From contig OX597819.1 of the NCBI GenBank assembly GCA_951406725.2, positions 98,704,001 to 98,768,000 of the forward strand: a stretch of DNA of 64,000 bases, written 5' to 3'. This DNA comes from Octopus vulgaris (taxonomy: Eukaryota). Both the position numbers and the translations under genes were made by a program. This document shows, piece by piece, positions 17,058 to 50,833 of the stretch. The notes below the pieces were generated by a model. That model searched no databases and was not told the origin of the DNA. It worked only from the letters and a program-made list of their open reading frames with translations. Position 1 is the stretch's first letter; every line of letters starts with the position of its first letter.

Positions 17058-17086
17058 CTTTATTAAAAAGCAGCAAAAGTATCACA

Positions 17087-17129
17087 AAAACAGTTACTCG
17101 GAGTGTCACGTTCCCGTTCGTCGGACAGT
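17087..17129 (-). ncRNA. Inverted copy of the hammerhead (GAAA mutated to GACA)
   Basis: Reverse complement actgt-CCGACGA-acgggaacgt-GACA-ctccgagta-actgt. Confidence 0.65.
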
Positions 17130-17152
17130 CTTGTTTAGAATGGATTCTTAAC

Positions 17153-17198
17153 AAAACTGTCCGACGAACGGGAACATGAAACTCTGAGTAACAGTTTT
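17153..17198 (+). ncRNA. Type I hammerhead ribozyme, U4C core variant
   Basis: Stem I AAAACTGT/ACAGTTTT; core CCGACGA; stem II ACG-GGAA-CAT (CGT in the other arm); GAAA; stem III ACT-CTG-AGT; cleavage triplet GUA ending at 17190. Confidence 0.8.
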
Positions 17199-17300
17199 TT
17201 GTTGATATTTTTGCTACTTTTTAATAAAGCATGTTACTCTACCTCTGGTATTCGAGTACTATTTTCCCACTTTGTTTCGCATTTATGTACTTACTCTTGT

Positions 17301-17399
<99 letters not shown>

Positions 17400-17554
17400 T
17401 ATATACACACATGTATGTATGTATAATATGCTAAAAGTATTTATGTGTATACTTTTTCGCGAGTAACACTTGATCATTTGAAGTAGAAAAAAAGGACACA
17501 AAAAGGTGAGAAGAAAGAAATATCACATTAACACGAATATAAACACATTTACAC

Positions 17555-17588
<34 letters not shown>

Positions 17589-17855
17589 CATTTGTGTGTA
17601 TATATATATATATATATATATTTGTGTGTGTATATATATATATATATATAAAATAAATAAATATATATATATATATATACACGCACACATACACACACAC
17701 ACGCACACATACACACACACACACGCACACACACATATATATATATATATATATGCACATACATATAGATATATATATGTGTGTGTAACTATATTTTCCT
17801 TGCTTAGAGAATGTACAACTCTGTTGTCTCAAAGGGAATCCTGTCAGCTTCTTCC

Positions 17856-17880
17856 CTGATGAAGGACTGTCCGAAACGGC
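17856..17880 (+). ncRNA. Degenerate hammerhead core
   Basis: CTGATGA-A-GGA-CTG-TCC-GAAAC. Stems I and III cannot be recovered. Confidence 0.4.
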
Positions 17881-18340
17881 AAACTCACTGTACTATTCTT
17901 TTCTATTTAACTAAATGTTGCCGGCGCAATCGGTCTCTTTGGAGTTTGTTTTGTCGTACGCAAAACAAGGACTATTTAGCAAAAGAGTGTGGTTAATTTT
18001 TTCACTGAGGCAGGCTTCAATCTAGTCACTATACACTCACTTAATGATGAGTGGATCAATGTTGGAAATCCTTTGATCATGAATTTGCTTGCTCAGGTCT
18101 GAGTCGAGTTGCACCACAACAAAGACAGTAGGCAGCTCAACTTCCTCGTCTAGTTACTCATATTCTGTTTCATCCCTCCGGGCACTTACCAATCCTTCCT
18201 TCATAGAATTGGTATCTGGAATTCCCCACGTCGTCGTTCTCATGCTCTCTGAACGTAAACCGTAGAAACTTCATCAAACTGGGAGGTCTTGCAAAACATC
18301 TCTTGCTCTGATTTACACACACACGCACGCACACACACAC

Positions 18341-18404
<64 letters not shown>

Positions 18405-18585
18405 TCCCGCAATTACAAACAAGATTGCGTACACACGCAGATATATCACAATAGATGTGATATATAGATGCAGAGGTATATAACCTTAAAGAATGTAATA
18501 CACAAAAGCATACTCACACACACACACACACACACACACATGCACACGCACACACACACACAATTACATGCATTCTGCCCCCCCA

Positions 18586-18619
<34 letters not shown>

Positions 18620-18658
18620 AAAAAAGGTTTGAAAATGCAATTTAAACGATGTTTATTT

Positions 18659-18697
18659 ACTTAACCGGTTTCACTCTTTGGTAAGATTGTCAAAAGT
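18659..18697 (-). ncRNA. Hammerhead ribozyme, U3-A8 variant (inverted copy)
   Basis: Reverse complement ACTT-TTGACAA-tcttaccaaagagt-GAAA-CCGG-TT-AAGT. Confidence 0.65.
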
Positions 18698-18714
18698 TAC
18701 ATTTAAGGAAACAT

Positions 18715-18937
18715 TGAATAATATGGGTTCAAAAAAAGTTTTTTACATAATTGTCACATTGAATATTATGCATTCAAAGTTTTTTACATAATTGTCACAT
18801 TGGATATTATGGGTTCAAAAAAGTTTTTTACATAATTGTCACATTGAATATTATGCATTCAAAAAAGTTTTTTACATAATTGTCACATTGGATATTATGA
18901 ATTCAAAAATGTTTTTTTATACATAATTGTCACATTA
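18715..18937. repeat. ~40-bp minisatellite (5 units) inside the pseudo-LTR, mirrored at ~21505-21730
   Basis: Unit ttcaaaaaagttttttacataattgtcacattg(a/g)atattatg, repeated. Confidence 0.9.
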
Positions 18938-19431
18938 CATGTATAAATATAGTGTTTGGTAACAGAGAAGTTCAATAGTGTGATGAGACTATTTGGGAAA
19001 ATTTGGCAGAAAAGGATAAAACAAATATATTATTGGGAATTGGTTGCGTTAATTATTGGTTGTCGCAAATTGTCACATTACATGTATATATATACAATCT
19101 TTGGTATATATATACAGCGTTTTGACAGCAAAAATTAAAATGGATTTTTTGTACATCTCAGAATATTTTAAGTATGTTTTTACTGACCTGTCAGTATTAG
19201 CAGAAAGGCTGAACTGAGAGAACAGAAGAAGTAGCCAATGTGGTGTATACTTCCCCTTTATGCATGAATGATTTTGGGGTTATCAGAAGGTTAGTATGCG
19301 GGTGTGAATAGATGTGTCCGTGCCTGCTGGTCAGACAGCGTCTGTTTGTCACACACATATATATACACACAAACACACACACACACAACAACACACACAC
19401 ACACACACACATAGTATACAAACACACACCA

Positions 19432-19596
19432 CAGATACCACTAAGTAGACACTTAGACCTTTGTGCACACAATAAGTCCCCCAAATTCTTAGTCTTCCCA
19501 CTATACCAATGCTCGGACAACACCACAGACCAAACACGAATAAATAAGGAAAGTAATCTTATTCAAAAATACAGACCACAACTAAACATACTCTAA
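19432..19596 (+). pseudogene. C-terminus of a PLE GIY-YIG endonuclease
   Basis: QIPLSRHLDLCAHNKSPKFLVFPLYQCSDNTTDQTRINKESNLIQKYRPQLNIL*, with the S-x-H...C...R-x3-E-x3-I-x4-P-x-LN pattern typical of PLE endonuclease ends. Confidence 0.75.
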
Positions 19597-19986
19597 CATA
19601 CCCCCTGGAAGCACATCCAGAGCAAGCACACAGGGACGCGCGCACGCTCACAGCATATCGTGCGGGCGGGCACATGCGCGCATCGGCACGCATAGGACAC
19701 ACTAGCGGGCATTGACCGCACACATACGTGGCATGCACACGCATGCATTATATATATGTAGGTGATGTATGTGTGTGAGTGTTGTTTGTGTGTGTGTGTG
19801 TGTGTGTGTGTGCACTGTGTGCGTGTGTGTGTATATGTGTGTGTGCGCGCGTTGTATGTGTGTGTGTGTGTGCACGTGTGTATATATGTGTGTGTGTGTG
19901 TGCACTGTGTGCGGGTGTGTGTGTATGTGTGTGTGTGTGAGCATTGTGTACGTGTGTATGTATTTACATATGTATCTGTTTATATT

Positions 19987-20025
<39 letters not shown>

Positions 20026-20821
20026 TGTGTGTGTATATGCATGGTATGTGTGTATATGTTAGTACTTTGTTTGTGTGTGTGTGCGGCATGTAGAGATATA
20101 TTTGAGTGTGTACGCTATAGGTTTGTAATTTGTGTGTGTGGGGGGTGGTGAATTTTTTATATATATATATGTGTGTGTATGTGTGTGAAAAAATATATGT
20201 ATGTGCATGTATGTATGTATGTATGTGTGTATATATATATATATATATGTGTATATATATGTGTGTGTGTGTATGTGTGTGTGTGTATATTTATTTGCAT
20301 GTTTATGTGTGTATAAACATGTACATTATTTGCATGCGCATTGTGTATATGTATATTGTATGTATGTGTATTGTATATGTACGTGTACAATTAAGTGTAT
20401 ATATTTGTGTGTATGTGTGCACTGTATATATGTATATTGTAGGTGTGCTATATGTGCATGAATACATGTATATGCATTGCGTGTATATATATGTATGCAT
20501 TGTGTGTGTATGTATGTTATGTGTGTGTGTGTGTATATATATATTATATGTATGCGTACGTGTATGTGTATGCATTGTATGTATGTGTGTTGTGTGTATA
20601 TGTGGTACATCTATGTATGTGTATGTAAACACTATTTATATGTATATGTGTATATATGTATATGCATTGTCTATATATATATATATATTATATGTATGTA
20701 TTGCGTATGTATATTGCATGCATATATTGTGTATGTATATTGCTTACATGCTGTATGTGTGTATTGTATGTGTGTATATATATGCTAGGTGTATTTGTGT
20801 GATATTTATATTATGTATGTA

Positions 20822-20875
<54 letters not shown>

Positions 20876-21749
20876 GTGTGTGTATGTGTGTTATATATCT
20901 GTGTATGTTATATATAGATACATGTTATATTTGTGTGCTGTGTGTATATGTGATATATGTGGGTGCGTTGTGTGTGGGTGTGTGTGTTCTGTGTGTGTGT
21001 GTGTTGTTTGTATGTGGTGTGTGTTTGTATACTATGTGTGTGTGTGTGTGTGTTGTTGTGTGTGTGTGTGTTTGTGTGTATATATATGTGTGTGACAAAC
21101 AGACGCTGTCTGACCAGCAGGCACGGACACATCTATTCACACCCGCATACTAACCTCCTGATAACCCCAAAATCATTCATGCATAAAGGGGAAGTATACA
21201 CCACATTGGCTACTTCTTCTGTTCTCTCAGTTCAGCCTTTCTGCTAATACTGACAGGTCAGTAAAAACATACTTAAAATATTCTGAGATGTACAAAAAAT
21301 CCATTTTAATTTTTGCTGTCAAAACGCTGTATATATATACCAAAGATTGTATATATATCCATGTAATGTGACAATTTGCGACAACCAATAATTAACGCAA
21401 CCAATTCCCAATAATATATTTGTTTTATCCTTTTCTGCCAAATTTTCCCAAATAGTCTCATCACACTATTGAACTTCTCTGTTACCAAACACTATATTTA
21501 TACATGTAATGTGACAATTATGTATAAAAAAACATTTTTGAATTCATAATATCCAATGTGACAATTATGTAAAAAACTTTTTTGAATGCATAATATTCAA
21601 TGTGACAATTATGTAAAAAACTTTTTTTGAACCCATAATATCCAATGTGACAATTATGTAAAAAACTTTTTTGAAGGCATAATATTCAATGTGACAATTA
21701 TGTAAAAAACTTTTTTGAACCCATATTATTCAATGTTTCCTTAAATGTA

Positions 21750-21790
21750 ACTTTTGACAATCTTTTACCAAAGAGTGAAACCGGTTAAGT
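21750..21790 (+). ncRNA. Hammerhead ribozyme, U3-A8 variant with GUU site
   Basis: Stem I ACTT/AAGT; core TTGACAA; stem II TCTTT-TACC-AAAGA (+GT); GAAA; palindromic stem III ACCGGT; triplet GUU. Confidence 0.7.
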
Positions 21791-21867
21791 AAATAAACAT
21801 CGTTTAAATTGCATTTTCAAACCGTTTTTCTTACATAATTCCACTCGTGCGATACCCCACAACTCAA

Positions 21868-21904
<37 letters not shown>

Positions 21905-22945
21905 ACCCATGCATATAGAGATCTATGTATGTGTTGTATAATTCCAGAAAATGCAATACCAACTCGCACGTACACACACATATGCATGTATACCTACACA
22001 CAGAAGTAAATGCAAACACTCTCACATGCAAAAATCTCTTTTAAACATATACACACATATCGTCACCATCCGTTCCACATCTACCCACGTACAGATAACC
22101 ATACACATGCATAAATACCTGTTTACACACACACAAACACACACACATAGACTCACATACACATATACACATTCACACATAGATAAACAGGCTCTCCGCT
22201 CTGCTAAACTCTGGCACTATTTGTAATCTCCTCAATACAGGTTCAATTCCCCTTCGGTCAATTTGATAAATCATCACTGTAATGTCATTATATCCTCTTT
22301 ATATCGACCCTATTTCATTTTTCTATTTTATATATTCTCTTATTCTGTTGTTCTATATATTTCTCATTCATTTATCTATTCTAGCATTCTGCTATTCATT
22401 CATTCAGTCATTCGTTTTCACTGCACATCAATATCCATACAGTAATACTGCAACAGTTCTTTTTTTCTTTAATACGAATATACATTCGCACGCACTCACA
22501 CACACGCACACACAGCTTACGTATCAACACACACACACACACGAAAACACGTAAGGGAATATACAAACGCAAGCAGGGATACACACAAGCACAAACACAC
22601 AAACGTAATAGACATACATGGACACAGAATGCGCGCGCTCACACACACACACACACATGCACACACACACACACATACAAACATACACATACAGGCATGT
22701 ATACATTAAGAAGCCAGTTGCAGATATCGATTTTAATTGTAATCCTTAGTCTATCACTTCAATTCGCCAAATATTTCTGACGTCACCAGCTGAAGTTGGT
22801 TGTAGCTGTAATTTACCTGTTACTTCCGTATCCGGTTATCAGCCTAGCTTGGTGCAAAACATTTACCGCGTTCTTTTGCTAAATAGTCCTTCTTCCCCAC
22901 TACCATTCATCTACATTTCATATATATGTGTGTGTGTGTATGTGT

Positions 22946-22994
<49 letters not shown>

Positions 22995-23059
22995 CGTGCG
23001 TGTGTGTGCGTATATATATATATATATACAAATATATATTATATAAACATTCTTTTGCT

Positions 23060-23434
23060 TTTTTATTTCTTTCAGTCATCTGATAGCGGCCATGCTGTAG
23101 CGCCGCCTTAAAGGTCTTTTAATCGAAAACATCGACCCCAAGACTTATTCTTTGTAAGCCTAGTACTTATTCTATCGGTGACTTTTGCCGAATCGGTAAT
23201 TACGGAGACGTAAACATACCAACATCGGTTGTCAAGTGATTTTGGGCGTTGGGGGGGAGCAAACACATTCACAAAGATCTAGACATGCACACACATGCAC
23301 ACATATACACACGCATGCACACACACACATATACGACGGGTTTTCTATCAGTTTTTGCCTGCCAAACCCAAGGCTTTGGTTGGCCAGAACCATATGGTTG
23401 GGAAGCAAGTTTCTTACCACACGGCCACGCCTGC
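23060..23434 (-). mobile_element. SINE family B, diverged and internally deleted
   Basis: Homology to 7481-7906. Confidence 0.75.
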
Positions 23435-23548
23435 TCAATATATACATATATACATGCACACACCTGTATAAGTATGTACAGATATATAGGTGCTTGTGTG
23501 TATGTGTATGTATGAACGTAAGCATACACGAGTTTATGCATGTATCCA

Positions 23549-23592
<44 letters not shown>

Positions 23593-23600
<8 letters not shown>

Positions 23601-24042
23601 TAAATTAGAGATAAAACCACTATTAGGCAAATCAAACAGTGAAAATCATAAGCCAATACATAGAAATAAAATTAATTTAAAAATATAAAAGTTAAAATTT
23701 AAAAATTATTTAAATAATTTAAACTTATCATCATCATCATCATCATCGTTTAGCGTCCGTTTTCCATGCTAGCATGGGTTGGACGGTTCTACTGGGGTCT
23801 GTGAAGCCAGAAGGCTTCATCAGGCCCAGTCAAATCTGGCAGTGTTTCTACGGCTGGATGCCCTTCCTAACGCCAACCACTCCGTGAGTGTAGTGGGTGC
23901 TTTTTACGTGCCACCCGCACTGGTGCCAGACAGAGCTGGCAAACGGCCACGAACGGATGGTGCTTTTTATGTGCCACCGGCACGAGGGCCAGGCGAGACT
24001 GGCAACGGACACGAAACGGGGCGGTGCTGGCAAGCATTTTAA

Positions 24043-24090
<48 letters not shown>

Positions 24091-24181
24091 ATTTTTATAT
24101 TATTTTATTTCTATGTATTGGCTTATGATTTTCACTGTTTGATTTGCCTAATAGTGGTTTTATCTCTAATTTAATATAATA
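23593..24181. mobile_element. Fold-back element in (TA)n with ~80-bp essentially perfect inverted termini (23593-23672 / 24102-24181)
   Basis: tattaaattagagataaaaccactattaggcaaatcaaacagtgaaaatcataagccaatacatagaaataaaat and its reverse complement. Confidence 0.8.
23726..24033 (-). mobile_element. SINE 3' portion with (GAT)n tail, nested in the fold-back element
   Basis: Minus strand ...ggcgttaggaagggcatccagccgtagaaac...ccatgctagcatggaaaaacggacgctaaacgatgatgat, plus an internal tandem duplication (gtgctttttacgtgccacc-type unit, twice). Confidence 0.7.
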
Positions 24182-24494
24182 TATATATATATAATAATAA
24201 ATCTCTGAGCGAGATATAAACAGTAACTGCTCTATAACATAAGGGGGATCAGCCATCTGAATGTGGCTAGGGAAACACACACACACACATATACAAATAA
24301 GCATACTCACACGCACATACACAAACATACACAGATTGAAGTACATACTGACATGAGTACATGAGTACACATCACATGACGAGAAAAAGTGCCGCATACA
24401 ACTGGACTTACGATATGACTTTAATTTGATGACGCCAGCAAGTTAGTATTGACTTTTGTCAAACTTCGGTTACTGGAAATTAAACGATTGCAGT

Positions 24495-25086
24495 GTTGTG
24501 TCTGTATGGTAAGGAGTTGGATCTTTTCGGTTTGAACGGCAGTTTTTCTAGCGGTGTCTTATGAAATTGTCCCCCATAATTATGACCCTAATATCGATCT
24601 ATTGCATTTCAATCTGTTTTAGGGTTAGTTAGGGTTAGGGTTAGGGGTGGGGGGAAGGGTATCTTTTTTCTTCAGAAATGTAAATAAACCCAATCTGTTT
24701 CTTAAACAAGGGACATATTCATACGGCACAGAATGTTGTTTAGCTCAATGGACGTCATTGATTGGTTGAAATTGCAGAAATTGAAGAAAGAAAAACAAGA
24801 AATATCTTATAAACTATAGAATTTTCTCAATAAAGCCTAGAGAAAAAGATGTTTTATAAACATATTCTACCAGTATACGAGGTTTAAATTTTTTTAGTTA
24901 CCTAGAAATTATGTTAAAAACTGCCGTTCAAACCGAAAAGATCCAAGGAGTTTCCTTCTTTACTGCACGGTTCTGGGTTCAGTTCCAGTGGGTGACACCC
25001 TAGGCAAGTGTCTTCTAGTATAAGCCCGGGCCGACCAAAACCTTATGAGAGGGTTTGTTGACGAAAAGTGAGAGGAGGACATTATC

Positions 25087-25127
<41 letters not shown>

Positions 25128-25312
25128 CACATATACTCACACACGTGTGTGTGAGTGTGTTTATGTGTATGAATGTGTCTTTGTATTTGTTCCCCACCAC
25201 CGCTTGGCAAGCGGTGTTGGCTTGTTTACGTTCCCGCAACTTAGCAGTTCGGCAAAAGGGAATGATAGAATAAATATCAGGTTTGAAACTTAAAAATAAG
25301 TAAGTACTGGGA
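24495..25312 (+). mobile_element. SINE family B interrupted in its head by a MITE
   Basis: tgtgtctgtatggtaaggagtt | tccttctttactgcacggttctgggttcagttcc... rejoins across the MITE. Confidence 0.75.
24519..24944. mobile_element. MITE with 28-bp TIRs and 8-bp TSD (Merlin- or hAT-like), with internal TTAGGG repeats
   Basis: TIR GGATCTTTTCGGTTTGAACGGCAGTTTT at both ends. TSD aaggagtt at 24511-24518 and 24945-24952. Confidence 0.9.
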
Positions 25313-25359
25313 CTTTTTGAATGAGACGTCTAACGAAAAATTACTTTCACTTTTTCTTA

Positions 25360-25429
25360 GTAGTGCGGCCTGCCTGATGACGAGCCTTGTCTCATGTGGC
25401 CCGCTTCTCGGTAAAGGTTACCCACGCCT
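25360..25429. mobile_element. hAT-like MITE right-end remnant
   Basis: gcggcc / tggcccgc subterminal motifs and the end aaaggttacccacgcctg. Confidence 0.45.
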
Positions 25430-25698
25430 GGCATTGTTCCCAGATCTTACTGCAACCAAATTTAGGTGGATGAAGAATTAGAGTCCAGAATGCAATTCAT
25501 CACAGAGACATCAAGAAACACCATGTAAAATGTAGATTCTTGCAAAACATAAAATGTATCACTATCAACGCCTCGAGCACTGCTACCACCACCAGCACCA
25601 CCACCACACCACCAGCACCACCACCAGCACCACCAGCACCACCAGCACCACCAGAACCAGCACCATCACCACCAGCACCCCCCCCCCCCACCACCTGT

Positions 25699-25895
25699 AA
25701 CAGCCGTTCAAGAATTTGGACCTGGAGATCTCCATTTCCAGCGACTTCGAGGGCCACCTCTCAGTGGTGTCGGGCGTCAACGTAGAGCCCTCGACTACAA
25801 CAAGACGACCATAGTTCTTTTTCTTCCAAGGTCTGGGGTCTCCCACCTCTAACCCCTAGACCATCACCTAATCACCCATACCCGTCTTGTTGCTT

Positions 25896-25930
<35 letters not shown>

Positions 25931-25931
25931 C
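25699..25931 (+). repeat. Interspersed repeat with (AAC)n tail; second copy at 63765-63952 (-)
   Basis: acagccgttcaagaatttggacctggagatctcc...ttgttgcttaacaac is shared between the two loci. Confidence 0.75.
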
Positions 25932-26045
25932 CACCTATAACAACAGGACAAGAAGAGGGTGACGAGGACAGTGAAGTAGTAGAAGGCAAAGATAATGGAA
26001 CGGCAACCACAGATTCTGCAGCACCAGCAATAACAGCAGTAATAA

Positions 26046-31567: not shown

Positions 31568-31983
31568 GGCGGCGAGCTGGCAGAAGCGTTAGCATGTCGG
31601 GCGAAATGCTTAGCGGTATTTCGTCTGCCGCTACGTTCTGAGTTCAAATTCCGCCGAGGTCGACTTTGCCTTTCATCCTTTCGGGGTCGATTAAATAAGT
31701 ACCAGTTACGCACTGGGGCTGATATAATCGACTTAATCCGTTTGTTTGTCCTTGTTTGTCCTCTCTGTGTTTAGCCCCTTGTGGGTAGTAAAGAAATATG
31801 TATTTCGTCTGCCGCTACGTTCTGAGTTCAAATTCCACCGAGGTCGACTTTGCCCTTCATCCTTTAGGAGTCAATAAATTAAGTATCAATTACGCACTGG
31901 GGTCGATGGAATCGACTTAATCTGTTTGTCTGTCCTTGTTTGTCTCCTCTATGTTTAGCCCCTTGTGGGCAATAAAGAAATAA
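31568..31983 (+). mobile_element. SINE family A with tandem body+tail duplication
   Basis: Head ggcggcgagctggcagaagcgttagc, then two units tatttcgtctgccgctacg...aaagaaata. Confidence 0.9.
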
Positions 31984-33221
31984 GTAACTTATATTAAACA
32001 GGAAATACTGATGTGAAGAAATCGAAGAGTTGGGACGAAGCATTTTAAAGTACGAGCTTAAAATTCTGCAGGTCAATATTTAGGAAGAAAATCTTGTTCC
32101 GGTTAATTACATTCCAGACATAAAGAATTAACTAGGGTGTTTAGAACTCAATGTAGGATACGGAGATAAACAGCAAGAATGATTTAGGAAATGAGAGGAA
32201 TAGGTACCAGGTGGATAAGATGGTGGTGGCACACGAAAGGTACGACTCCAGAGGCTGAGGAATAGTTGTAGAAGCAGTAGAAGTGACAGAGAGAAACTTG
32301 TAGCAGATGCAGATTGTAATGTTTTAACAATTGAAGGTTTGATTATCACTCGGAATATTTACCTTTCAATGCTGTTTAGAATACTATATTGCTGCTGTAT
32401 TGTTACAGACATGCATTCCACATGTGACGTGTCAATTATCATTAACTGATAATTGCTAGAGCGGTGTCTGGCTCTAGACAGTAAACTCGGCCTATTGGGT
32501 ATGGCTTCGACGGTAATATAGATATGCAGACACGTTAAAAGATCATCTAAGATTATGAAGGCCAGTATTTGGAAAGAAAGTAAAACTTTCAGCTGTTGTA
32601 CTTTTAATGCAGTTGCTGTGTATGATTTATAATGCAAAGTGATAGTGTTTATGTACAACTGAATGATGTGAAGATATCATATCTCAATAGTCGAGTGTTT
32701 TTACACTTACGGAGCAATACAATATCTACAACTAAAGTTCAGTGTATATTAGAAATTCCATCAAATATATATTGCAAATTCAAAACAAGCCATTCAACTG
32801 ATGCATCATGGTAAATAATATGAACTGTATATTGCTACATATAAGTATATACAACCTACTTTAGGCAAAAAAATATATGAAAATGTTGCTTACAAATACA
32901 TTTTATATTTTTGTTGATATACTTATCTCTCTCTGTCCAGATTTAAAAGTGGTAGCGCAACGTATAAAATGTTTGTAGTGGATTAGGCTGCTTTTTTTTT
33001 TTAACTATAAAGCTACATATGAGGCTCTGTCTATTTTGCCAGTAGCAGCGCACGAAACACTTGAACCTGAAGTCACTGATATAACTTCACATAGAAACAT
33101 AGTTCATATCTGACGAAAGGATATCTCAATTCTGTATAATTATTTCATTACCTGCGCATTAAAATATTTTTTCAACCAACCAACCAATCAACAAGCCAAC
33201 CAACCAACGAATCGAATCACA

Positions 33222-33511: not shown

Positions 33512-33899
33512 CCTGGAACATACACCACAACCATAGTTGGCGACATAATGACATCATATCGAGATAAATAGCAGATGGGGACCAGTTAGAATTGCCTTCA
33601 GGTCATGTAGCCAATCATGCTCAAAGGATCTCTGAATAAGGGTTGTATAAGGCCGATAAATGAAACACCCATGTTTCCAGAGATGAATTATTCAAACCCC
33701 AAAGAATTCCTCGCAACACATAGGTATGATGCTCCTCCACTACTCCTGCGCGTGACTGGAGATGCATATATCGTCAGCCACTAAGGGACATACTCTACTG
33801 GTTAAGGTTAAGCAAGTTACAAGCAAATCTGTTGTATTGAGCAGAATATTTCCTGTAGCCCAAGATAAGAAACCATGAGAGCCACTGCCTGGTACTGGG
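33512..33899 (-). mobile_element. Family X, older copy
   Basis: Reverse-complement homology to 3625-4075. Confidence 0.7.
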
Positions 33900-33969
33900 T
33901 GATCGTCGTCGTCATAGTCAACATCAACATCATCATCATCATCATCATCACCACCACCCCACCACCACC

Positions 33970-34001
<32 letters not shown>

Positions 34002-34016
34002 TGTCGTCGTCGTCAA

Positions 34017-34049
<33 letters not shown>

Positions 34050-34056
34050 TATTATT

Positions 34057-34526
34057 GAGTGAGAGAGTAGTGCATGCCATCAAAGTGACACTGGGGTAAA
34101 ATATACGAAGCCCAGTATACCCATCATGACTACCTGTCTGATAAGAGTACACCAGGCACATACATCACAACCATATGTGCGCGACATGGTGATTTCATAT
34201 CAAGATAAACAGCACATGACCTTGCAGGCGTGGCCCAGTTAGAATTTTCTTCTGGTCGAGTAACCCATCCCGCTCAAAAGGTCCCTGAATAAGGGTTGTT
34301 TAAGGATGTTGAACGAAACACCCATGTTTCCAGGGGTGAATTATTCAAACCCCAAAGAATCCCTCTCAACACAAGGCTATGATACTCCCCTACTACTTCT
34401 GCTCGTGATCAGAGATGCACATATCGTCAGCCACCAAGGGACATGCTCAGTTGGTTAAGGTCAAACAACTGACAAGCAAATCTGTGGCATTGAGCAGAAT
34501 ATTTGCTGTAGCCCATCTTTTATACC
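34057..34526 (-). mobile_element. Family X copy
   Basis: Reverse-complement homology to 3700-4169, with an (ATT/ATC)n tract at its 3' end. Confidence 0.8.
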
Positions 34527-35164
34527 AATCAAACAACTGACAAGCAAATCATCATCATCGTTGTTGTTGTTGTTGTTGTTGTTGTTGTTATTATTATTAC
34601 TGTAGTGATTGTTGATGTTGTTTTCCTCATCCAGTCTCTTTTATATTGTGTCTTTGTATTTTAAACTTCCTTTTCTTTCCACCAAAATCTTTTGATTACG
34701 TCTCTTGTTAGCAAAACTTAAATTTATCTTCATCCATTTCTCTCAAGTAGCATTAATACACACAAGACATGCACATTCATGTTGTCTGCCAAGATAAATT
34801 TAGACACCACTAACTTGATATATTTTGCGTGTTACGGAGGATATATCAACTGAGAGAAGTGAAGAACGGCAAAGATATGGAAATAATAATAGAAATAAAG
34901 GAAGAGGATATGCCATAAGCTGATGGATGTATTGGTTAGAAATTTAAGAACCGTAGAAAACTAAATCAATGGAAAACTGTCGGAATAATGAATAGTTCCC
35001 GATACGGGTGCTGCAGTGGAATAATCTTTATTCAAAGGTGTGTTTCCATATGCTGTTAGAGTTTATGCTTTCGTCAACAGCCTCTTGGAACCTTCAGAGG
35101 AGCGACATTAGACTATACACGCACGCACGTACGCACGCACGCACACACACAAACGTCTATTTCT

Positions 35165-39039: not shown

Positions 39040-39395
39040 TACATACACACACACGTCCAGACCACCAGCCCTCTTTCACACGCACATACATACTCTCTTA
39101 TACACACACGCACCTTTGTGTTGGGGGCACCTTCGTATTGGAAGTCACTTGACCCTGTTATCTCCCCTACTGTCCCTCTCGCGTCTGACCATTGTCCGAA
39201 GTCAGAACGCCATGATAGATCGTTAGCTACTACACGCATTTTATTTCTCTCCTTGTTTTTTTCTGTGTATCTTTCTGTCAAAGAGCGTAGGCTCGAAACG
39301 TAAAAGACATTTTCTATTCCTGAGCGTTATACTAACACATTTGTTTGTTTGTACTCCACCTGCCTTCATCCTTTGTTTATTTTCGTAAACTTTCC

Positions 39396-39398
<3 letters not shown>
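39040..39398 (+). mobile_element. PLE pseudo-LTR fragment between (TA)n tracts
   Basis: Contains an HHR-shaped motif and a downstream cctgagcgt segment shared with the 46.4 kb element. Confidence 0.65.
39270..39307 (+). ncRNA. Minimal hammerhead with altered core
   Basis: TCTTT-CTGTCAA-A-GAGC-GTAG-GCTC-GAAA-CG-TA-AAAGA. Stems I and II are perfect; the core deviates from CUGANGA at two positions. Confidence 0.55.
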
Positions 39399-41671: not shown

Positions 41672-42955
41672 GTATGTATACATACATCTCTACATTTATA
41701 TATATACATACATATATATATATGTATATATTTATACGCACATATATATATACGCATATATATATATATTGGCACATATATATATACATATGTATATATA
41801 GACATACATATATATATATATGTATACATACATATCTACATTTATATATATATACATATATATACACATATATATACACACGCATATATATATATATATA
41901 TATATATTGACACATATATATATATGTGTGTGTTTGTGTATATGTGCGTGAGTTTGTGCGTGTGTGATTGTGTGTGCGTTTATCAACACAAACCTATATA
42001 CTTAGATACTAACACATATGTCGATGGACCTGCGGAGGGTTATGGTCAACAAAGAATAGGCATGACCACCCAAAGGTTCTAATTTCTTAAGAGCAATTAA
42101 TAATACACTAAAAGCAAAAGAACTTCTGTTGGGGAATGTTTCCAAATTTGCCTCAAAGGTCTGACTAAGAGATGCAAGTAGTTCTGAAGGATAGACTTGT
42201 CTTTTCAGGCGAGGTGGTATTACATTATAGTTTGTACACACTGGTATTTTTTTTTTATCTAATGCTGTTTCAAGTAGAATGGGGGAGATTCGCGCACTAT
42301 TCAAATTGTGAGAGAAATGAGTCATGAAGAAGAGTTGTTGTCAATATGTAAAATCAAACAATTCCAAGTGCAATTGAAATAAAAAATGTAGAATACCTAA
42401 TGCGCTGGATTAACACATCAGTACGCACGAACTATTCGTGTCTCCAAGAGAAAAAAAGTATCTGGGAGAATAAAGAAAAACGGCAGTGAAGAGGATGTGT
42501 GTGTAAAATAAGTGTGGCTACTTTTAGACTTTCTCAGAAGGTTTTCCATTAAAATTAGGAGCATATGGATAACTATAAGTGCGTAACTCTGTTTTGGCGG
42601 TATTTGTAATTGAATTTTTCTCTTTAAAAATAATGCTCATTAACATAAATGAAGAACGATAAAATAGGGCGGGAAGACTGTGCTCCTGGAAACTAAAGAC
42701 TGATTGGTTTCCAAAACATCGTCTACTAAAAGTGAAATAGTGTGCGAATATACAATCATGCATAAATACATGAAACGTATGTACACATTACACACCAAAA
42801 CGCACACACATATAGAACGCTTATATTTATGTGCATATGTATGTACAAATACATATTCACAAGCATACACAAAATCCTATGTGTTCGTGCTCAAAGCTGT
42901 AACAAGAAATAAATTGACTTTTAAGCTTCTGTATGTCTGAATGTATTTATGTACG

Positions 42956-42986
<31 letters not shown>

Positions 42987-43016
42987 GCACACACATACAC
43001 ACACATATACATATAT

Positions 43017-43047
<31 letters not shown>

Positions 43048-43190
43048 CATATATATACATGTGAATATATATATGTATGTATGTATATATACATACATAC
43101 ATATATATACATGTGTATATATATATATATATGTGTGTGTGTATATATATATGTATATATATATATGTATATATATGTATGTATGTATAT

Positions 43191-43235
<45 letters not shown>

Positions 43236-43477
43236 TATATTCATTATATATTAGTTATTCTATTGAATCGGGTACGCGATTTGCATAAATAACGCATTCG
43301 TGGCCTTTAGTGCGACTTATAAACTACGGAGAGGTTATTGGTGTTCATTTTTCATAGTTTGATATATTACGTAATAAACGTATAGATTTTTGTTGTGACT
43401 GCTGGCGTAAGTTATTTATAACAAGTTAAATATATTAGACGGTCTTCTTTGCTTTTTTCCTAATGATAATCTTTTTT

Positions 43478-43925
43478 AATCTAGGAATAAGACCTGGAAT
43501 TTTGAGGGCAAGGGGCTAGTCGATTACATCGACCCCAATGCTCAACTGGTATTTATTTCATCGACCCCGAAAGGATGAAAAGCAAAATCAAATTCGGCAG
43601 AACTTGAACTCAAATTCGGACGAAATGTTGCTCAGCATTTTTCCCGGTGTGCTAACGATTCTGCCACCTCGCTACGGTAGATGATGATAATGACAACGAT
43701 GGTTATAATGATGATAATTTCAAATCTTGGCACAAGATGCAGCTATTTTAATGAAGAGGGCCAAATCGATTACATTGGCCCATGTACTTAACCGGTACTT
43801 GATTTATATCAATCCCGAAGCGATGAAAGGCAATGTTAGCCAACGCAGAACTTGAACTCACAACGTAAAGAGCTAGAAGAAATGTCCCAAAGCATTTTGC
43901 CCTGTATGCTAATGATTCTGTCGGT
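43478..43925 (-). mobile_element. Two diverged SINE family A copies
   Basis: gtcgattacatcgacccc...gaaaggatgaaa...gaactca, present twice. Confidence 0.7.
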
Positions 43926-43970
43926 AATACCTGAGGTCTTAGGCATACCAGACATATTATTAAGTATACA

Positions 43971-44709
43971 AATTGCAGCACAAGACCAAAGCCTCCCCAC
44001 CAGAAATTACCAAAAACATGTAATGAAAAGAAATATTACAAGTAACTGCAGAATATGTGGAGATGGACAAGAAACAATAAATCATATTATCTCTAGCTGC
44101 CCAGTCCTGGCTAAGAAGGAATATATTCACAGACATGACAGAGTTGGAACCTACATACATTGGAAGCTATGCCAACATTATGGAATAACAACAGAAAAAA
44201 GATGGTATAGGCACACACCAGAAAAGGTCACAGAAAACGAGAAAGCAACCATACTCTGGGATATGCCGATACACACAGATAGAGAAATTAAGGCCAACAG
44301 ACCAGATATAGTTGTCAGAGATCATGAAGAAAAAAATGCTTTCTAATTGATGTATCAATACCGGCAGATGACAACGTGTCTCTAAAAGAAATGGAGAAAC
44401 TCTCAAAATACAAAGACCTGGAAATAGAGGTAACTAGAATGTGGAATCTGAAAACAGAAACAATTCCTATCATAGTAGGTGCATTAGGCATGATAAAAAA
44501 ATATTCAGACAAATACATAACAAAAACACCAGGACTTACAAACACATATAACATACAGAAAATTGCACTACTAGGCACTGCACACATCCTACGCAAAACA
44601 CTTTCCATACAATAACCATCAGAGCATCACAACAAATCACAGCACATACCCAAGGCACACAGAGCTGCGCTCGGTAGTGAAGTGAAAGCACGCTATAAAA
44701 ATAAAACTA

Positions 44710-44781
<72 letters not shown>
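43971..44781 (+). mobile_element. Young 5'-truncated R4/Dong-like non-LTR retrotransposon (CCHC knuckle + restriction-like endonuclease), (AAT)n tail
   Basis: CRICGDGQETINHIISSC (CCHC), RHD, ANRPDIVV, then after one frameshift in an A-run (~44336) CFLIDVSIP...EKLSKYKDL...LRKTLSIQ* (stop 44615). About 100 nt of 3' UTR, then (AAT)n. Confidence 0.92.
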
Positions 44782-44783
<2 letters not shown>

Positions 44784-45324
44784 GGGTTTCTTTATTAGCC
44801 ACAAGGGTTTACAGTAAGATGCTTTTAGGGTATGTGCCTCTCAACAAAACCAATAGCTCACAGACAGAATTAAACTGTTGCAAGCTCTTTCTTAGAGCAA
44901 ATATAGACCGCCCGACTTTGCTTAACATTTCTCTAGTTCCCCACCAATATCTTCTGTGTCTTGCAATAATTTAAACTTAACCGAACATTCCATATTTGTT
45001 CTCATATATTAAACAGCTACTAATTCTCTCTACAGTGAAGGAAATATTTCCACAAACAAACACGAACTGCCAATTATGTTCCTCGGTTGTTCTTATTCCA
45101 TTCCATTTAGTCGTTAATATATTCAAGAGACACTCGGACGCCACAATTTCTAATTTCCTTTTCCAATTTCTCTTAGTTTATGAATTTAATGCTGAATATC
45201 ATCAATGGAGATGATGACAATCTACAGCATGATATATACTTGTCACACAACGTGGTCTTCCGTGTTTTACTAATGACTCAATATCTTACTTACAATAAAA
45301 TACCAAACAACAGAATCTTATCTG

Positions 45325-45509
45325 CTTCTTTTACCTGTTTCAGCCATTAGGCTAATGGCGTGCTGCGACACCGCTTGTCGGGTTTAGTCGAACAAATTGA
45401 CTCCAGCATTTATTTTTTAAACTTAGGACTTATTCTATCAGTGTTATTTGCCGAGTCACGACGTTACGGGTTGTCAACCACAGGTAGGAAGACAAATCGC
45501 ACACACAAA

Positions 45510-45573
<64 letters not shown>

Positions 45574-45786
45574 TACACACACACATATATACATTTCCAC
45601 CCATCCATATATATATATATTTTTTCTTTTATTCTTTTATTTGTTTCAGTCATTTGACTGCGGCCATGTTGGATCACTACTTTTAGTCGAATAAATTGAC
45701 ACTGGGACTTATTCAACCTCTCTCTTTGCCGAACACTTTAAGATCGGTTGCCAAGCGATGGTGGAGTGACCAACACAGACACAGAC

Positions 45787-45852
<66 letters not shown>

Positions 45853-46010
45853 CGGCTTCTTTCAGTTTCCGTCTACCAAATACACTCACAAGGCTACGGT
45901 CGACTTGAAGCTGTAGTAGAAAACACTTGCCCAAGGTTCCACGCAGTGGGACTGAATCAGAAACCATGTGGTTGGGAAGCAAGGTTCTTACCACACAGCC
46001 ACTCCTGCGT
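45325..46010 (-). mobile_element. SINE family B copies (partial 45325-45520; near-full 45632-46010)
   Basis: Homology to 7481-7906. Confidence 0.8.
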
Positions 46011-46049
46011 ATATATATATATATATATATATATAAATATACCTTCTTC

Positions 46050-46245
46050 TGTAAGCACAAAGTCTAACATTTTGGGAAGGGCTAGTCACTTACATCAACC
46101 CCAGGGCTTGACTCGTACTCTTTTTATCGGCACAGAAAGGATGAAAGGCCAATTCGATCTCATGGAATTTGAACTTGGAATGTAAAGACGGACGAAATAA
46201 TCCTAAGTGTTCAGTTCGGCGTGCTACTGACTGTGTCAGTTCACA
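46050..46245 (-). mobile_element. Diverged SINE family A
   Basis: gaaaggatgaaaggcc...ggaatttgaact...gacgaaat. Confidence 0.65.
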
Positions 46246-46349
46246 CGCACACACACACACACACTCACATCAAATGGATGTGCTATAAAACTATTCTGCA
46301 CATAAAATAACAGCCATACCAAAAATGCAACATACCTCCAAACAAAAAA

Positions 46350-46570
46350 AAAAAAAAACGGAGAAAAAACGGGCAACAACAAAAAAAACCAACAACGCAA
46401 GGACGTGGTACATGCAAAGTATTAATAAGACGCTCAGGGAAGGAAAGAAAGGGTGTTTTACGTTTCGAGCAAAGCTCTTCTTCAGGAACTAGAGACAGAG
46501 AAAAGTTCAAGAGAAAAGGAAGACGGAGGAAAAACCGACCACAGTCTACATGTGGTTACATTTTGGAACG
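46350..46570 (-). mobile_element. PLE pseudo-LTR fragment
   Basis: Carries a canonical minimal HHR. The tail is related to the 39.3 kb and 12.4 kb fragments. Confidence 0.7.
46455..46489 (-). ncRNA. Minimal type I hammerhead ribozyme
   Basis: Reverse complement GTTC-CTGAAGA-A-GAGC-TTT-GCTC-GAAA-CG-TA-AAAC, with loopless palindromic stem III ACGT and triplet GUA. Confidence 0.8.
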
Positions 46571-46644
46571 TGTGTGTGTATATGTATGTACGTATGTATG
46601 TATGTATGTATGTATGTATGTATGTATGTATGTATGTATGTATG

Positions 46645-46801
46645 TCAATACAGTTTTCGTCTACGAAATTCACTGGCAAGCCATTGGTCGGTCCGGAGCT
46701 ATAGTAGAGGACACTTAACCAAAGTGCTATGCAGTTGGACTAAACTAGAAACAACGTGGAAACAAAGCGTGCTTCGTAAGCACACAGCCAAGCCGGTGCC
46801 C
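46645..46801 (-). mobile_element. SINE family B 5' half, old
   Basis: cagttttcgtctacgaaattcactggcaagccattggtcggtccggagctatagtagaggacactt homology. Confidence 0.6.
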
Positions 46802-47110
46802 AAAACGTAGACTTTCTTGACGGAAGATCTCACAGTCAGCACGAGGTTGTCTGCTCTGGAATATGTATCCTATAATTACAGGTCAGCTGTTATTTGATGC
46901 TCCACTGGGTATAATTTGAAGATTTTCAAGGATTATAAGAATGTTTATTCGTAGAAAGTTTTATCCTGGAACATTTACGTACCTTTGGGATTTACCCATC
47001 TCAATGCAATCTGTACTTTCTCTGTACCTGTCTGTTTATAAAAAAAATTCTATCTACGAGTATGTATGTATATATGTGCGCATGTATCTATCTATCAGTC
47101 TGCCTGTCTG

Positions 47111-47195
<85 letters not shown>

Positions 47196-47299
47196 ACGAA
47201 TGCTTGTGTGTATGACAATTATTATATGCAAATATATTTATGCATGTATGCCTGTATCTCTCTTGTCTCTCTTTCTCTCTCTCTCTAACTCTCTCTTTC

Positions 47300-47340
<41 letters not shown>

Positions 47341-47442
47341 TCGGGGTGAGTACTTGATAATTATAAGCACCTGTGTATACCGTTTGGTGGTGTAGGTGGT
47401 GGAGTAAATTGATCAAAATAAAAACATGAAGCGAAGGATTCA

Positions 47443-47520
47443 GCGGTACATATGTTTCGGGCCTTTATTAGACAGATTTATAACAATGCATAATGTATGT
47501 CTGTGGCCTTCTTCAGCCGC
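47443..47520 (-). ncRNA. Type I hammerhead ribozyme (mirror copy)
   Basis: Exact reverse complement of 47796-47873. Confidence 0.88.
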
Positions 47521-47795
47521 GCACAATAGCTTCCACAAGGACATGTGTTACATCAAAAATTCTTGGTTGGGGATGCAAATCCTCTCATTCGCGTACGACA
47601 TAATGCGGCAGCAGCATAGAATTGAAGCGTCCATCTCTTTCTTCTCTCAATGTAGAATCTACATTGAGAGAAGAAAGAGATGCATCCATTTCAATTCTAT
47701 GCTGCTGCCGCATTATGTCGTACGCGAATGAGAGGATTTGCATCCCCAACCAAGAATTTTTGATGTAACACATGTCCTTGTGGAAGCTGTTGTGC

Positions 47796-47873
47796 GCGGC
47801 TGAAGAAGGCCACAGACATACATTATGCATTGTTATAAATCTGTCTAATAAAGGCCCGAAACATATGTACCGC
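47796..47873 (+). ncRNA. Type I hammerhead ribozyme with extended stem II
   Basis: Stem I GCGG/CCGC; CTGAAGA; (A)GGCC...GGCC(C) enclosing ACAGA/TCTGT; GAAA; palindromic stem III ACATATGT; triplet GUA ending at 47869. Confidence 0.88.
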
Positions 47874-47904
47874 TGAATCCTTCGCTTCATGTTTTTATTT
47901 TGAT

Positions 47905-47983
<79 letters not shown>

Positions 47984-48518
47984 AAACACAGAGAGATAAT
48001 ACGTACATGCACACAAGAGAGAGACGAAGAGAGAGAGAGAGATGAAGAGAGAGAGAGAGAGATGAAAAGAGAGAGAGATAGAAAGAGAGAGAGAGAAGAG
48101 AGACACAGAGAGATAATACATATATGCACACATACATACATAAATATATATGCATATATATATAGTTACAGTCATATATATATATATATATATATATATA
48201 ATGCACTGAAATACCACCATCGTCATAATGTTGACCACCAACTGCAAACAGAATTCTGTAAGAGGCATTTTGTATATAATGTGAAAATGACTTCGAATAT
48301 TTGGTGTTTATTACATATCACTATAATTTGGTAACTTAGAAATTGACGTGACAGGTTTTCTAAGGTTTGCAACTTTTTATAGACTTTTATAGAAAACATT
48401 AAATGAGAATGAACCAGCTGCTGGAAGCGTTTTGTATACTGGAATAGCTTGTCAATAAATGTTATTTATATACAATGCATTATATATGTATGTATGTTCT
48501 ATTTATATTCATGTACAC

Positions 48519-48587
<69 letters not shown>

Positions 48588-48874
48588 CACACATATACAG
48601 ACACGCATATATATATGAATGTGTGTATGTGCAAGAGTGTGCGTGTACATATGTATGGTTGTATGGGAGAGAGAATGGATTAAGTGAGAGAGAGAGAGAG
48701 AAAGAGAGAGAGGGGGAAATAAAGGGTGAAAAAAGGAGATAAAGAAACTGATAGATGACAGACAGGTGCGTATGCATCATTTGTGTACATATTTATAAAT
48801 TTATATATTTATATATACATATATATTTATATATACATACATTTCAAAAATATATTGTGTATTTTGTCTATCTT

Positions 48875-48934
<60 letters not shown>

Positions 48935-50393
48935 AAATTATTATAATTATAAACATAATTATAATTAGGGTTTAGCAAAATTGTTTCACTACATACCGAA
49001 ATTTAGAAATAGCAGTTAAATACTATTCTACTACCATAAGATATCACCCAGACAGCAATACTCTCAACTCACACAGGCAAAGAGAGAGAAACCAAAAAAA
49101 AAACAAAAAAAAAAAACGAATCCACCCGACTTAGATTAACTATATACGCGTTTCTGTCCTATCTATCTAGACATATAATGTGGACAGAAATTCGCAATTA
49201 CAGGCATATGTGTGAGTATGTATGTGTATATTCCTGTACTTCCAGTTCAATATACTGTGTAATTCAATACAAGACGTTGCAATAACTCACTAGTTCTACT
49301 AGTTCTACTGATACAGTAAAAATTGTGAACAGTTATAATACCTTATATACAACCGTATATCGATACGACAGGCTGCTGCGGTCGCAATATTGGTTGTACT
49401 CTAACAGTCATTGCCAGTTAGTCTGATAGCACTGCTGCCAATAATTCACACTAATATATATTCTTTAGTAGGTAGGTATAATCTTTTAAATTGCTGCTTT
49501 CTCAAAAAAAAAAAAAAAGAAATTTTGTTGAAGGAATTAGCTTTTTATGTAATAAAAATATTAGGAAAAATAAAACCCGCCCCAGCTATCTGAATATCTA
49601 AATGAAATTTTCAAATGTGTTCTGAACACGGGTTTCATAAATTTACGAATTGAATCGAACAAAGTTCATGAAAATCAAACGTCACCTAGGGATATTAGTG
49701 GTTTAACTGAATCAAAATACGACCAAGTAGGAATCGAAACCATGACTTAGAGGTGGCTTGTTGGTATCTCTCATTCTAAAGCCTACCGGCCGTGACCTCG
49801 ATTTCATATTTTAGAAAGAAACTGGTTAAATAGCACATGTTCATAGATTATCCTTGGCAAAGTGAAGTGGTGTTGGTGGTGGAAAAGGCTATCTTCACTT
49901 GATACCTACAATGTCGATTCGCGCTTATGTAAGAAGCAACATTACTACAAGCGCCTAAAAGTCATGTAAGTTAATATGATAGTAAACTACTAGCAACAAC
50001 TAGTGTAGTAGTGAGATAGCGCAGGCAGCTATAGAGCTACAAACAGAAATACTACACACGACACGCATGGCTAAGCGGTACAGAAATCCATTTTGTAAAT
50101 GCATGGTTTCAGGTTCGTTTCTACAGCTCGGAGCCACGAGCAAGTGGTTTATACCATAAATTTCTCTCGTTCAAAGGCTGTGTTTAGTTGATAGAGGCGG
50201 TGCGGAATCCTGTTCGAGAGATCTTTCCTTTTCGTGGAAGTGGAATTAATAACTTGTCTGCTTTATTACAACGTTATGTACCTTGGGTGCATTTAGCAGA
50301 ATTCAATTTGCTGCAAGTATTCGAACTGGTGAGGGATCTGATGGTGTATTGGATATATACATACCTGCATACATACATACATACATACATACA

Positions 50394-50427
<34 letters not shown>

Positions 50428-50506
50428 CATACATATGCATACGTACATATATATATGTGTATATATGGCTATATATTTGCATGTATATATATACATATAT
50501 ACATAC

Positions 50507-50559
<53 letters not shown>

Positions 50560-50785
50560 TGTGTATATACTTTGAAATGACTAAACACGAACTACTATCG
50601 AAACTTACATATCATGTACAGGAAACTTTTTTTTACCACTTCTATACGCCACTTTACTCGAATAATGGAACTGCAACTACAGTATTTTATGTATTATTTC
50701 TACTTTCATTCTCTTATTTTCTCTATCTCCCACTTTTCCATAATTATTCCTTATTTCGAACTCAAACATTTACCTCTCTCACATC

Positions 50786-50833
50786 GTCTTTGATGAAAGG
50801 ATATCCATAATATCCCAGAAATAGCTGCAAGAC
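50786..50833 (+). ncRNA. Decayed hammerhead ribozyme (PLE remnant)
   Basis: GTCT-TTGATGA-aaGGATAT-ccata-ATATCC-ca-GAAA-TAGCTG-CA-AGAC. Three transitions restore CTGATGA...GAAACAGCTGTA. Confidence 0.6.

Follow-up and report, generated by a model that had tools for sequence, protein, structure and literature searches.

Six loci in a 64,000-nucleotide (nt) stretch of the Octopus vulgaris genome (assembly GCA_951406725.2, contig OX597819.1, positions 98,704,001 to 98,768,000, forward strand; here, the window) are 3' ends, or pseudo-long terminal repeats (pLTRs), of families of Penelope-like elements (PLEs). They carry a hammerhead fold of the minimal type I, and most of them have (TA)n at the end. 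Our analysis indicates that they are probably 5'-truncated element ends, that their inverted pairs are by-products of integration into (TA)n, and that the changes in their ribozyme cores, A6U above all, weaken cleavage in elements that spread nonetheless. Three of these core changes are fixed at the family level, namely, U3-A8, U4C, and A6U. Nearly all canonical PLEs carry a hammerhead, although these ribozymes cleave poorly and were not needed for insertion in the one in vitro system (PMC11167929). The families described here provide matched natural cases, i.e., a family with A6U, intact open reading frames (ORFs), and 8,147 matches next to a canonical sister family, as well as young U3-A8 and canonical families. 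If the A6U family cleaves, a new tolerated core is at hand; if it does not, a PLE family can thrive without a working ribozyme.

The original prediction placed hammerhead motifs at seven loci, at 17.15, 17.86, 18.66/21.75, 39.27, 46.46, 47.44/47.80, and 50.79 kb. Motifs were found at all of these positions (Table 1), and six of the loci are real. Genome searches with each locus (40 candidates scored and 30 fetched each) in the 2.8-Gb, microsatellite-rich host genome returned 1,132 to 4,249 first-look candidates apiece for these six, which thus represent six repeat families (here, A, C, D, E, F, and G) and bear out the expectation that several PLE families are involved. A relaxed descriptor with a fully paired stem III matched the window 6 times, compared with 0.6 times on average in 40 shuffled sequences (maximum 3), and a strict-core descriptor gave 2 against 0.05; the relaxed descriptor overlooked the copies at 17.15, 46.46, and 50.79 kb, which are decayed or carry U4C. 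Stems I and II and a self-complementary stem III are present in the six families, with an imperfect stem II base in C, F, and G. The seventh motif, at 17.86 kb, matches only itself in the genome search (one of one candidate). The absence of stem I (CTTCTTCC versus CTATTCTT) rules it out as a type I or type III hammerhead, and because it is both single copy and devoid of stem I it was not counted; it is likely a chance occurrence.

Table 1. Hammerhead-bearing element ends and related features of the window
Feature	Positions	Strand	Details
Family A (17.15 kb), inverted arm	17058..17144	-	Core CCGACGA 17124-17118; GAAA decayed to GACA
Family A (17.15 kb), forward arm, Hydra-like PLE 3' end	17144..17299	+	Core CCGACGA (U4C) 17161-17167; stem I 17153-17160/17191-17198; predicted cleavage after A17190; arm starts 17 nt before core
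CUGAUGA...GAAA motif (17.86 kb), not counted as ribozyme	17848..17900	+	Core from 17856; single copy, without stem I
Family C (18.66/21.75 kb), inverted arm, short 3' end	18612..19433	-	Core UUGACAA 18693-18687
Family C (18.66/21.75 kb), forward arm, 5'-truncated Neptune/Nematis-type PLE	19425..21872	+	Core UUGACAA (U3-A8) 21754-21760; stem III ACCGGT; predicted cleavage after U21786; (TA)n at end
Last 56 codons of family C RT-endonuclease frame	19426..19593	+	96% identical to 776-aa frame in L182
Family D (39.27 kb), 3' end (mapped part)	39220..39398	+	Core CUGUCAA 39275-39281; stem III ACGT; ends in (TA)n
Family E (46.46 kb), 3' region (mapped part), sister of D	46400..46560	-	Core CUGAAGA 46485-46479; extra A; stem III ACGT
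Family F (47.44/47.80 kb), inverted arm, long 3' end	47336..47658	-	Core CUGAAGA 47516-47510; tail 47336-47405
Family F (47.44/47.80 kb), forward arm, Hydra-type PLE, short 3' end	47659..47907	+	Core CUGAAGA 47800-47806; long stem II; stem III ACATATGT; predicted cleavage after A47869
Family G (50.79 kb), 3' end (mapped part), Hydra-like	50720..50895	+	Decayed canonical CUGAUGA hammerhead 50786-50833, core from 50790; family stem III ACAGCTGT

Upstream frames encoding a reverse transcriptase (RT) and a GIY-YIG endonuclease (EN) are long in three families (two of the Neptune/Nematis type, C and D, and one of the Hydra type, F), whereas two families (A and G) have decayed Hydra-like fragments and E has none. 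The predicted linkage to PLE ORFs therefore holds for C, D, and F and is indicated for A and G. In the family C locus L182, with which the window copy aligns over 2.5 kb, a 480-aa frame overlaps a 776-aa RT-endonuclease frame between two direct pLTRs (RVT_1 E 6e-8). A piece of the family D RT gave 150 scored matches, many of them in frames longer than 900 aa; the D frames span 917 to 1,200 aa, and in seven of the eight long loci fetched direct pLTRs flank the ORF, each with a hammerhead of the sequence CUGUUGA. The D protein shows DKG, YIDD, CX4CX2C, and GIY-YIG motifs (RVT_1 E 1.6e-7; GIY-YIG E 0.0076, below the cut-off), and C and D share the Neptune/Nematis traits as judged by eye (DKG, a CX2-5CxxC linker, and a CCHH endonuclease). 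The 731-aa frame of family F (L380) has DKT, YRDD, CxCX5C, CxxC, and CxH; the DKT, the CxCX5C linker, the CxxC and CxH in the EN domain, and the (TA)n target are Hydra clade traits, and its Atlas neighbours carry HTH_animal and, in some cases, GIY-YIG/RVT_1. The arrangement typical of EN+ PLEs, an RT followed by a C-terminal GIY-YIG, is found in C, D, and F, where the GIY-YIG motif was read by eye because the Pfam match was below the cut-off (D) or absent (C and F). Families A and G have fragments resembling the F endonuclease 1.2 to 1.4 kb upstream in colinear copies (E 1e-4 to 1e-14). All fetched copies of F are 5' truncated and may have lost the region of the N-terminal RWK motif of the Hydra clade, and no tandem F pLTRs were found in eight extended loci. 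A PDB sequence search with the family C protein gave nothing useful (E 0.79). Contigs from four sequencing runs, presumably of RNA, span the greater part of the C coding region; because they do not reveal ends, strand, or cleavage, they were left out of the analysis. Two side observations concern family C. Its ORF1 and RT frames share 61 nt in a -1 register (L182 2093-2153), and the shared stretch contains six T followed by A, a possible programmed frameshift; its pLTR contains a 44-nt tandem repeat just 5' of the ribozyme (18711-18936 and 21508-21736).

Majority cores, taken from the 30 closest copies of each family, are CCGACGA in A, UUGACAA in C, CUGUCGA in D, CUGAAGA in E and F, and CUGAUGA in G. 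The canonical CUGANGA...GAAA...UH is thus the family majority in E, F, and G and not in A, C, or D. Core-open exact patterns gave 8,147 (D), 2,232 (A), and 505 (C) matches and none in each reversed control. Among the first 100 listed matches per family, from which core and pair counts were made by eye, UUGACAA occurs in 99 for family C, U6 in 98 for D, whose state is CUGUNGA, and C4 in 84 for A. In the last family U4 is as frequent as G8A (10 matches each), and U4 therefore likely results from CpG decay. The original prediction named a reversion of family consensi to CUGANGA as a sign of mere decay; A6U, U4C, and U3-A8 stand at the family level, whereas some of the other deviations that it listed are decay of single copies. 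CUGUCAA at 39.27 kb combines the family A6U with a copy-level G8A, and the deviations at 50.79 kb (a UUGAUGA core, an A-A start of stem II, and a broken stem III) represent decay of the window copy. Its broader picture, a radiation of (TA)n-targeting PLEs with non-canonical cores, thus applies to several families and to some of the cores, with one locus likely due to chance and some deviations due to decay.

When the scan was widened to 1.32 Mb of fetched loci, 271 matches were obtained, in 12 multilocus families and 25 singleton loci. The cores are mostly canonical; U3-A8 occurs in two families, A6U only in D, and U4C recurs in several unrelated families. Specifically, U4C marks family A, a subfamily of E with 7 of 27 arms, and 4 of 18 G-type copies, as well as one family known from two loci and three singletons. 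In the literature searched, we found no report of A6U across a PLE family, the one paper listed for A6U concerning the twister ribozyme, and on U4C we found only PMC3088659; Lunse 2017 might contain A6U or further cases of U4C. As side observations, about 30 further hammerhead types were seen (L032, L198, L209, L220, L224, L232, L233, L235, and others), several with a palindromic stem III of 8 to 11 nt and three as inverted pairs, and some PLE families are nested tail to tail in one TA tract (L175/L192, L194, and L039).

In family D, U6 is present in 138 of 146 distinct D-type arms, across subfamilies in which N7 is A/G, C, or U, and in all 40 D arms near ORFs; A6 occurs in three scattered arms, one of them of the E type. 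Family E, whose 3' end is 72 to 73% similar to that of D, differs from it in stem I on both sides (TCTTT/AAAGA versus TGTTT/AAACA). The A6U core of D likely weakens self-cleavage. In a model based on predicted folds, U6 would let the core pair with the GAAACG strand, turning the monomer into an inactive rod: the G5:C15.2 mispairing is predicted at 0.98 in the youngest D subfamily and at 0.45 in an older one, in folds made with no A6 copy alongside. The canonical cores of E, F, and G would cleave slowly, either as dimers via the palindromic stem III or with the help of an element protein.

There are two other plausible explanations for the core variants. (i) They may be working ribozymes: the core could tolerate A6U and U4C, or a dimer or the element's protein could rescue them, the rod being a switch that delays cleavage. 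U6 is found both in intact, near-identical young D elements and in older subfamilies, U4C recurs in several families with the rest of the core intact, some activity, if low, remains in natural hammerheads with U4C or A6C (PMC3088659), and a PLE hammerhead needs protein for cleavage (PMC11167929). On the other hand, core mutants were not rescued except by the C3-G8 swap (PMC9901934), and 5' truncations do not peak at the predicted cleavage site: of 30 D copies selected by their downstream sequence, 28 keep the core, while the other two start downstream of it or are diverged. We therefore regard working variant cores as possible, if doubtful. (ii) The motifs may be relics kept as RNA structure, i.e., as a protein-binding or initiation signal near the RT start sites, none of which cleaves in vivo. 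This would agree with ribozyme mutants that leave in vitro insertion unaffected and with the absence, in one PLE, of RNA reads ending at the site (PMC11167929), as well as with the mismatched or bulged stem II base in young C and F and in G. It is nevertheless unlikely, given that an exact CUGANGA, UH, and a palindromic stem III are conserved, despite unrelated stems, in most of the 12 families and 25 singleton loci, although the descriptor itself selects for these features.

Several observations weigh against our preferred interpretation, weakened cores on truncated PLE ends. U6 was kept through the D subfamilies while N7 changed several times, and this persistence fits selection as well as neutrality. 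The monomers fold no better than shuffled sequences (z +0.6 to -1.7), as expected because the hammerheads are minimal. In the predictions, the active dimer is the most stable fold for G, lies within 1 kcal/mol of the optimum for A, and is 8 to 13 kcal/mol worse for C, D, and the canonical E; since the canonical E dimer (-9.9 kcal/mol) is also far from the best fold (-19.3 kcal/mol), misfolding predictions separate variant from canonical cores poorly. The ORF links of A and G consist of short, decayed matches, at one family A locus (L016) the fragment is of the Neptune type rather than Hydra-like, no ORF of family E was found in 27 arms, and the clade names are drawn from motifs only.

The element copies have sharp 3' ends at (TA)n. 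A (TA)5 tract lies within 260 nt downstream of 77 of 91 descriptor matches in D/E, 48 of 48 in F, 39 of 39 in C, 25 of 28 in A, and 14 of 18 in G, counts from which overlapping loci were not removed; as a baseline with a different span, 26% of the window lies within 150 nt of (TA)5. Most motifs are in or next to (TA)n, as originally proposed; the 46.46 kb copy does not abut such a tract at its 3' end. Two alternative 3' ends, one long and one short, occur in the families (16 long and 31 short among the 12 commonest continuations in family F), and each inverted pair in the window has one of each. Tandem C and D copies show that at the long end the element continues with its own TATA tract (L182 776-790 and the 5' pLTRs of L367-L374), which might allow its RNA to base-pair with the nicked target; no such element-encoded TATA tract is seen at the short end of F. 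The copies also show 5' truncation, an inverted 5' copy, and an optional 3' tail, which are PLE traits.

By analogy with published PLE work, the GIY-YIG endonuclease would nick (TA)n and thereby prime reverse transcription, which may start at either of two internal sites a short way 3' of the ribozyme. If both strands were primed, back-to-back joining of two truncated cDNAs could produce an inverted pair in which one end is long and the other short. The inverted pairs in the window match over 625 nt at 98% and over 222 nt at 99%, and the 17.15 kb locus forms one hairpin (z -16). At 18.6 to 21.9 kb, the two arms differ in length (0.8 versus 2.5 kb). Inverted pairs therefore exist as predicted, while the near-spacerless architecture ascribed to three two-strand palindromes is found only at 17.15 and 47.4 to 47.9 kb.

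The palindromes are likely integration by-products, and they are best read as such because a read-through transcript of the 17.15 kb pair is predicted to form a long hairpin and each strand has one sense motif. A functional architecture, selected because it aids ribozyme pairing or cleavage, might be suggested by the frequency of near-spacerless fold-backs in family A, where 18 of 40 unselected loci have a partner beside a short arm. We consider it very improbable. Each strand bears one sense hammerhead, which upon read-through of the 17.15 kb pair would pair with its antisense copy and is predicted to be buried in a hairpin of -109 kcal/mol; the copies have no ORF, the left arm in the window has lost GAAA, and none of 55 family D loci has an inverted partner within 300 nt. 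Accordingly, a functional reading of the palindromes seems unlikely. Among the 100 listed matches of each family, divergent pairs number 33 within 10 kb in C (2 of them less than 100 nt apart), 7 within 350 nt in A, and 1 within 10 kb in D.

Family A has a hotspot of 5' truncation and fold-back 10 to 25 nt before the ribozyme, which we did not find in the parts of the literature searched. When 40 family A loci were sampled in the order of the genome, 26 had an arm that stops no more than 32 nt before C3, and 18 of these 26 had an inverted partner. Arms ending no more than 25 nt before the core make up 39 of 55 in A, whereas in D 2 of 59 end less than 30 nt before it (Fisher p 3e-15, with slightly different settings and arms that are not independent); of the all-family measure of arm extension, which is noisy for A, only the D sample was used for this comparison, those of E, G, F, and C being biased to long copies. 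The template RNA of family A may start at this place, which is the weakest step of the proposed mechanism. An exact Initiator-type start was rejected: the ends spread from -3 to -25, the subfamilies differ, and no single base can be named.

Alternatively, the hotspot could reflect RT stalling or cDNA self-priming at a hairpin upstream of stem I rather than the RNA 5' end. A short hairpin is possible there in one subfamily, and by eye several junctions show 1 to 3 nt of microhomology and loops of 5 to 7 nt. However, in at least 3 of 40 loci the copy breaks off here directly into a microsatellite, without fold-back, and the hotspot is common to subfamilies with different upstream sequences. A hairpin stall is a real possibility that in our estimate falls short of an even chance. 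A transcript start at the hotspot, recording two-strand priming on the 5' pLTR, would combine with an intact and successful family D that amplified in several waves on an A6U core, cleaving with help or persisting as a noncatalytic rod; this joint scenario is a rather doubtful conjecture.

A high density of motifs in the window had been put forward as possibly undescribed; it is the norm for this genome. Forty evenly spaced 10-kb stretches of the genome gave 18 descriptor matches against 3 in reversed and 1 to 5 in shuffled sequences. Counting 15 family matches and 7 other plausible motifs, and with 3 weak ones dropped, there are about 22 loci per 400 kb sampled, which extrapolates to a genome-wide load of about 150,000 loci. 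Since this rate predicts 3.5 loci per 64 kb, six in the window are ordinary (P for 6 or more = 0.145), and an unusually high local density is ruled out. The claim that strict motif searches overlook variant cores is confirmed: at the gathering threshold, the Rfam hammerhead models gave no matches in three element loci (L182, L184, and L367). In the window itself, there was no hammerhead among the best 150 of 291 Rfam rows, which are dominated by microsatellite matches to microRNA models. Core-strict searches and Rfam thus overlook whole families.

The architecture is largely that of published systems. In PMC4209133 (Cervera and de la Pena 2014), minimal PLE hammerheads have the same pLTR position, short stem I, extra nucleotide (between 9 and 10.1), and palindromic stem III, and also shared are many families with heterogeneity within a genome, solo truncated copies, opposite-strand pairs (there 100 to 700 bp apart), and U3-A8; dimer activity was low. 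In contrast, family-fixed A6U and U4C are not found in the main-text parts or supplementary rows covered, the stem II base is here often A-U, bulged, or mismatched, and the extrapolated 150,000 loci compare with at most about 9,000 motifs per genome under the stricter descriptor used there. Families C and D resemble the Neptune/Nematis EN+ PLEs of PMC8557442 (Craig 2021) in DKG, YIDD/YLDD, CX4CX2C, a GIY-YIG fitting CCHH, pLTRs, and microsatellite targets, and C shares the overlapping upstream ORF, while non-canonical cores and an element-encoded TATA at the long end set them apart. That paper also describes inverted 5' copies, tails, a (TA)n bias, and, in its section 11, the features of the Hydra clade, of which F shares DKT, CxCX5C, CxxC and CxH, (TA)n, and a canonical core; F exceeds 4 kb with a 2-kb 3' region, whereas Hydra elements are generally shorter than 3 kb. 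The fragments of A and G resemble the F protein, and A differs from the Hydra clade in U4C and in the truncation hotspot beside the ribozyme.

Natural variants with U3-A8 covariation, and with U4C (viroid) and A6C (phage) at low activity, were reported in PMC3088659 (Perreault 2011). These changes, including one at position 6, recur here, but they are rare single cases there and are fixed in hundreds to thousands of copies here, with U at position 6. Single core mutants have low activity in PMC9901934. In PMC11167929, both strands are cut and extended, RT starts at two internal sites, and ribozyme mutants still insert. PMC13282606 reports 31 recently active PLE families in an octopus; the word "ribozyme" is absent from the passages covered. 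Non-LTR retrozymes (bioRxiv 10.64898/2026.07.22.740005) share type I hammerheads derived from PLE pLTRs, but they are tandem arrays without ORFs, whereas the loci described here are dispersed truncated ends of coding families; no retrozyme-type tandem array of short hammerhead units was found at the six loci among 150 of 163 repeat rows.

Of the features first thought to be undescribed, the extra A, U3-A8, the palindromic stem III, inverted pairs, and (TA)n targeting are hence published (PMC4209133 and PMC8557442). What is left as new is the family-fixed A6U, the recurrent U4C, the hotspot beside the ribozyme, which bears on the making of inverted PLE ends, and the large load. Because the architecture is known, the gain is mainly for specialists in ribozymes and retroelements.

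A few other repeats were seen in the window. Directly after family G, a broken transposase end with a terminal repeat is inserted into the TA tract (50896-51310); from its translated motif, we take it to be Tc1/mariner-like. Copies of a dispersed repeat that are 83 to 90% alike lie at 3698-4225, 33571-34528, and 57248-57582, and this repeat passes a loose hammerhead descriptor at 3796 and 57239 (CUGACGA with weak stems). Further repeats at 5680-6009, 31616-31986, and 45850-46010, some of them as 183-nt tandem pairs, are presumably like short interspersed elements (SINE-like).

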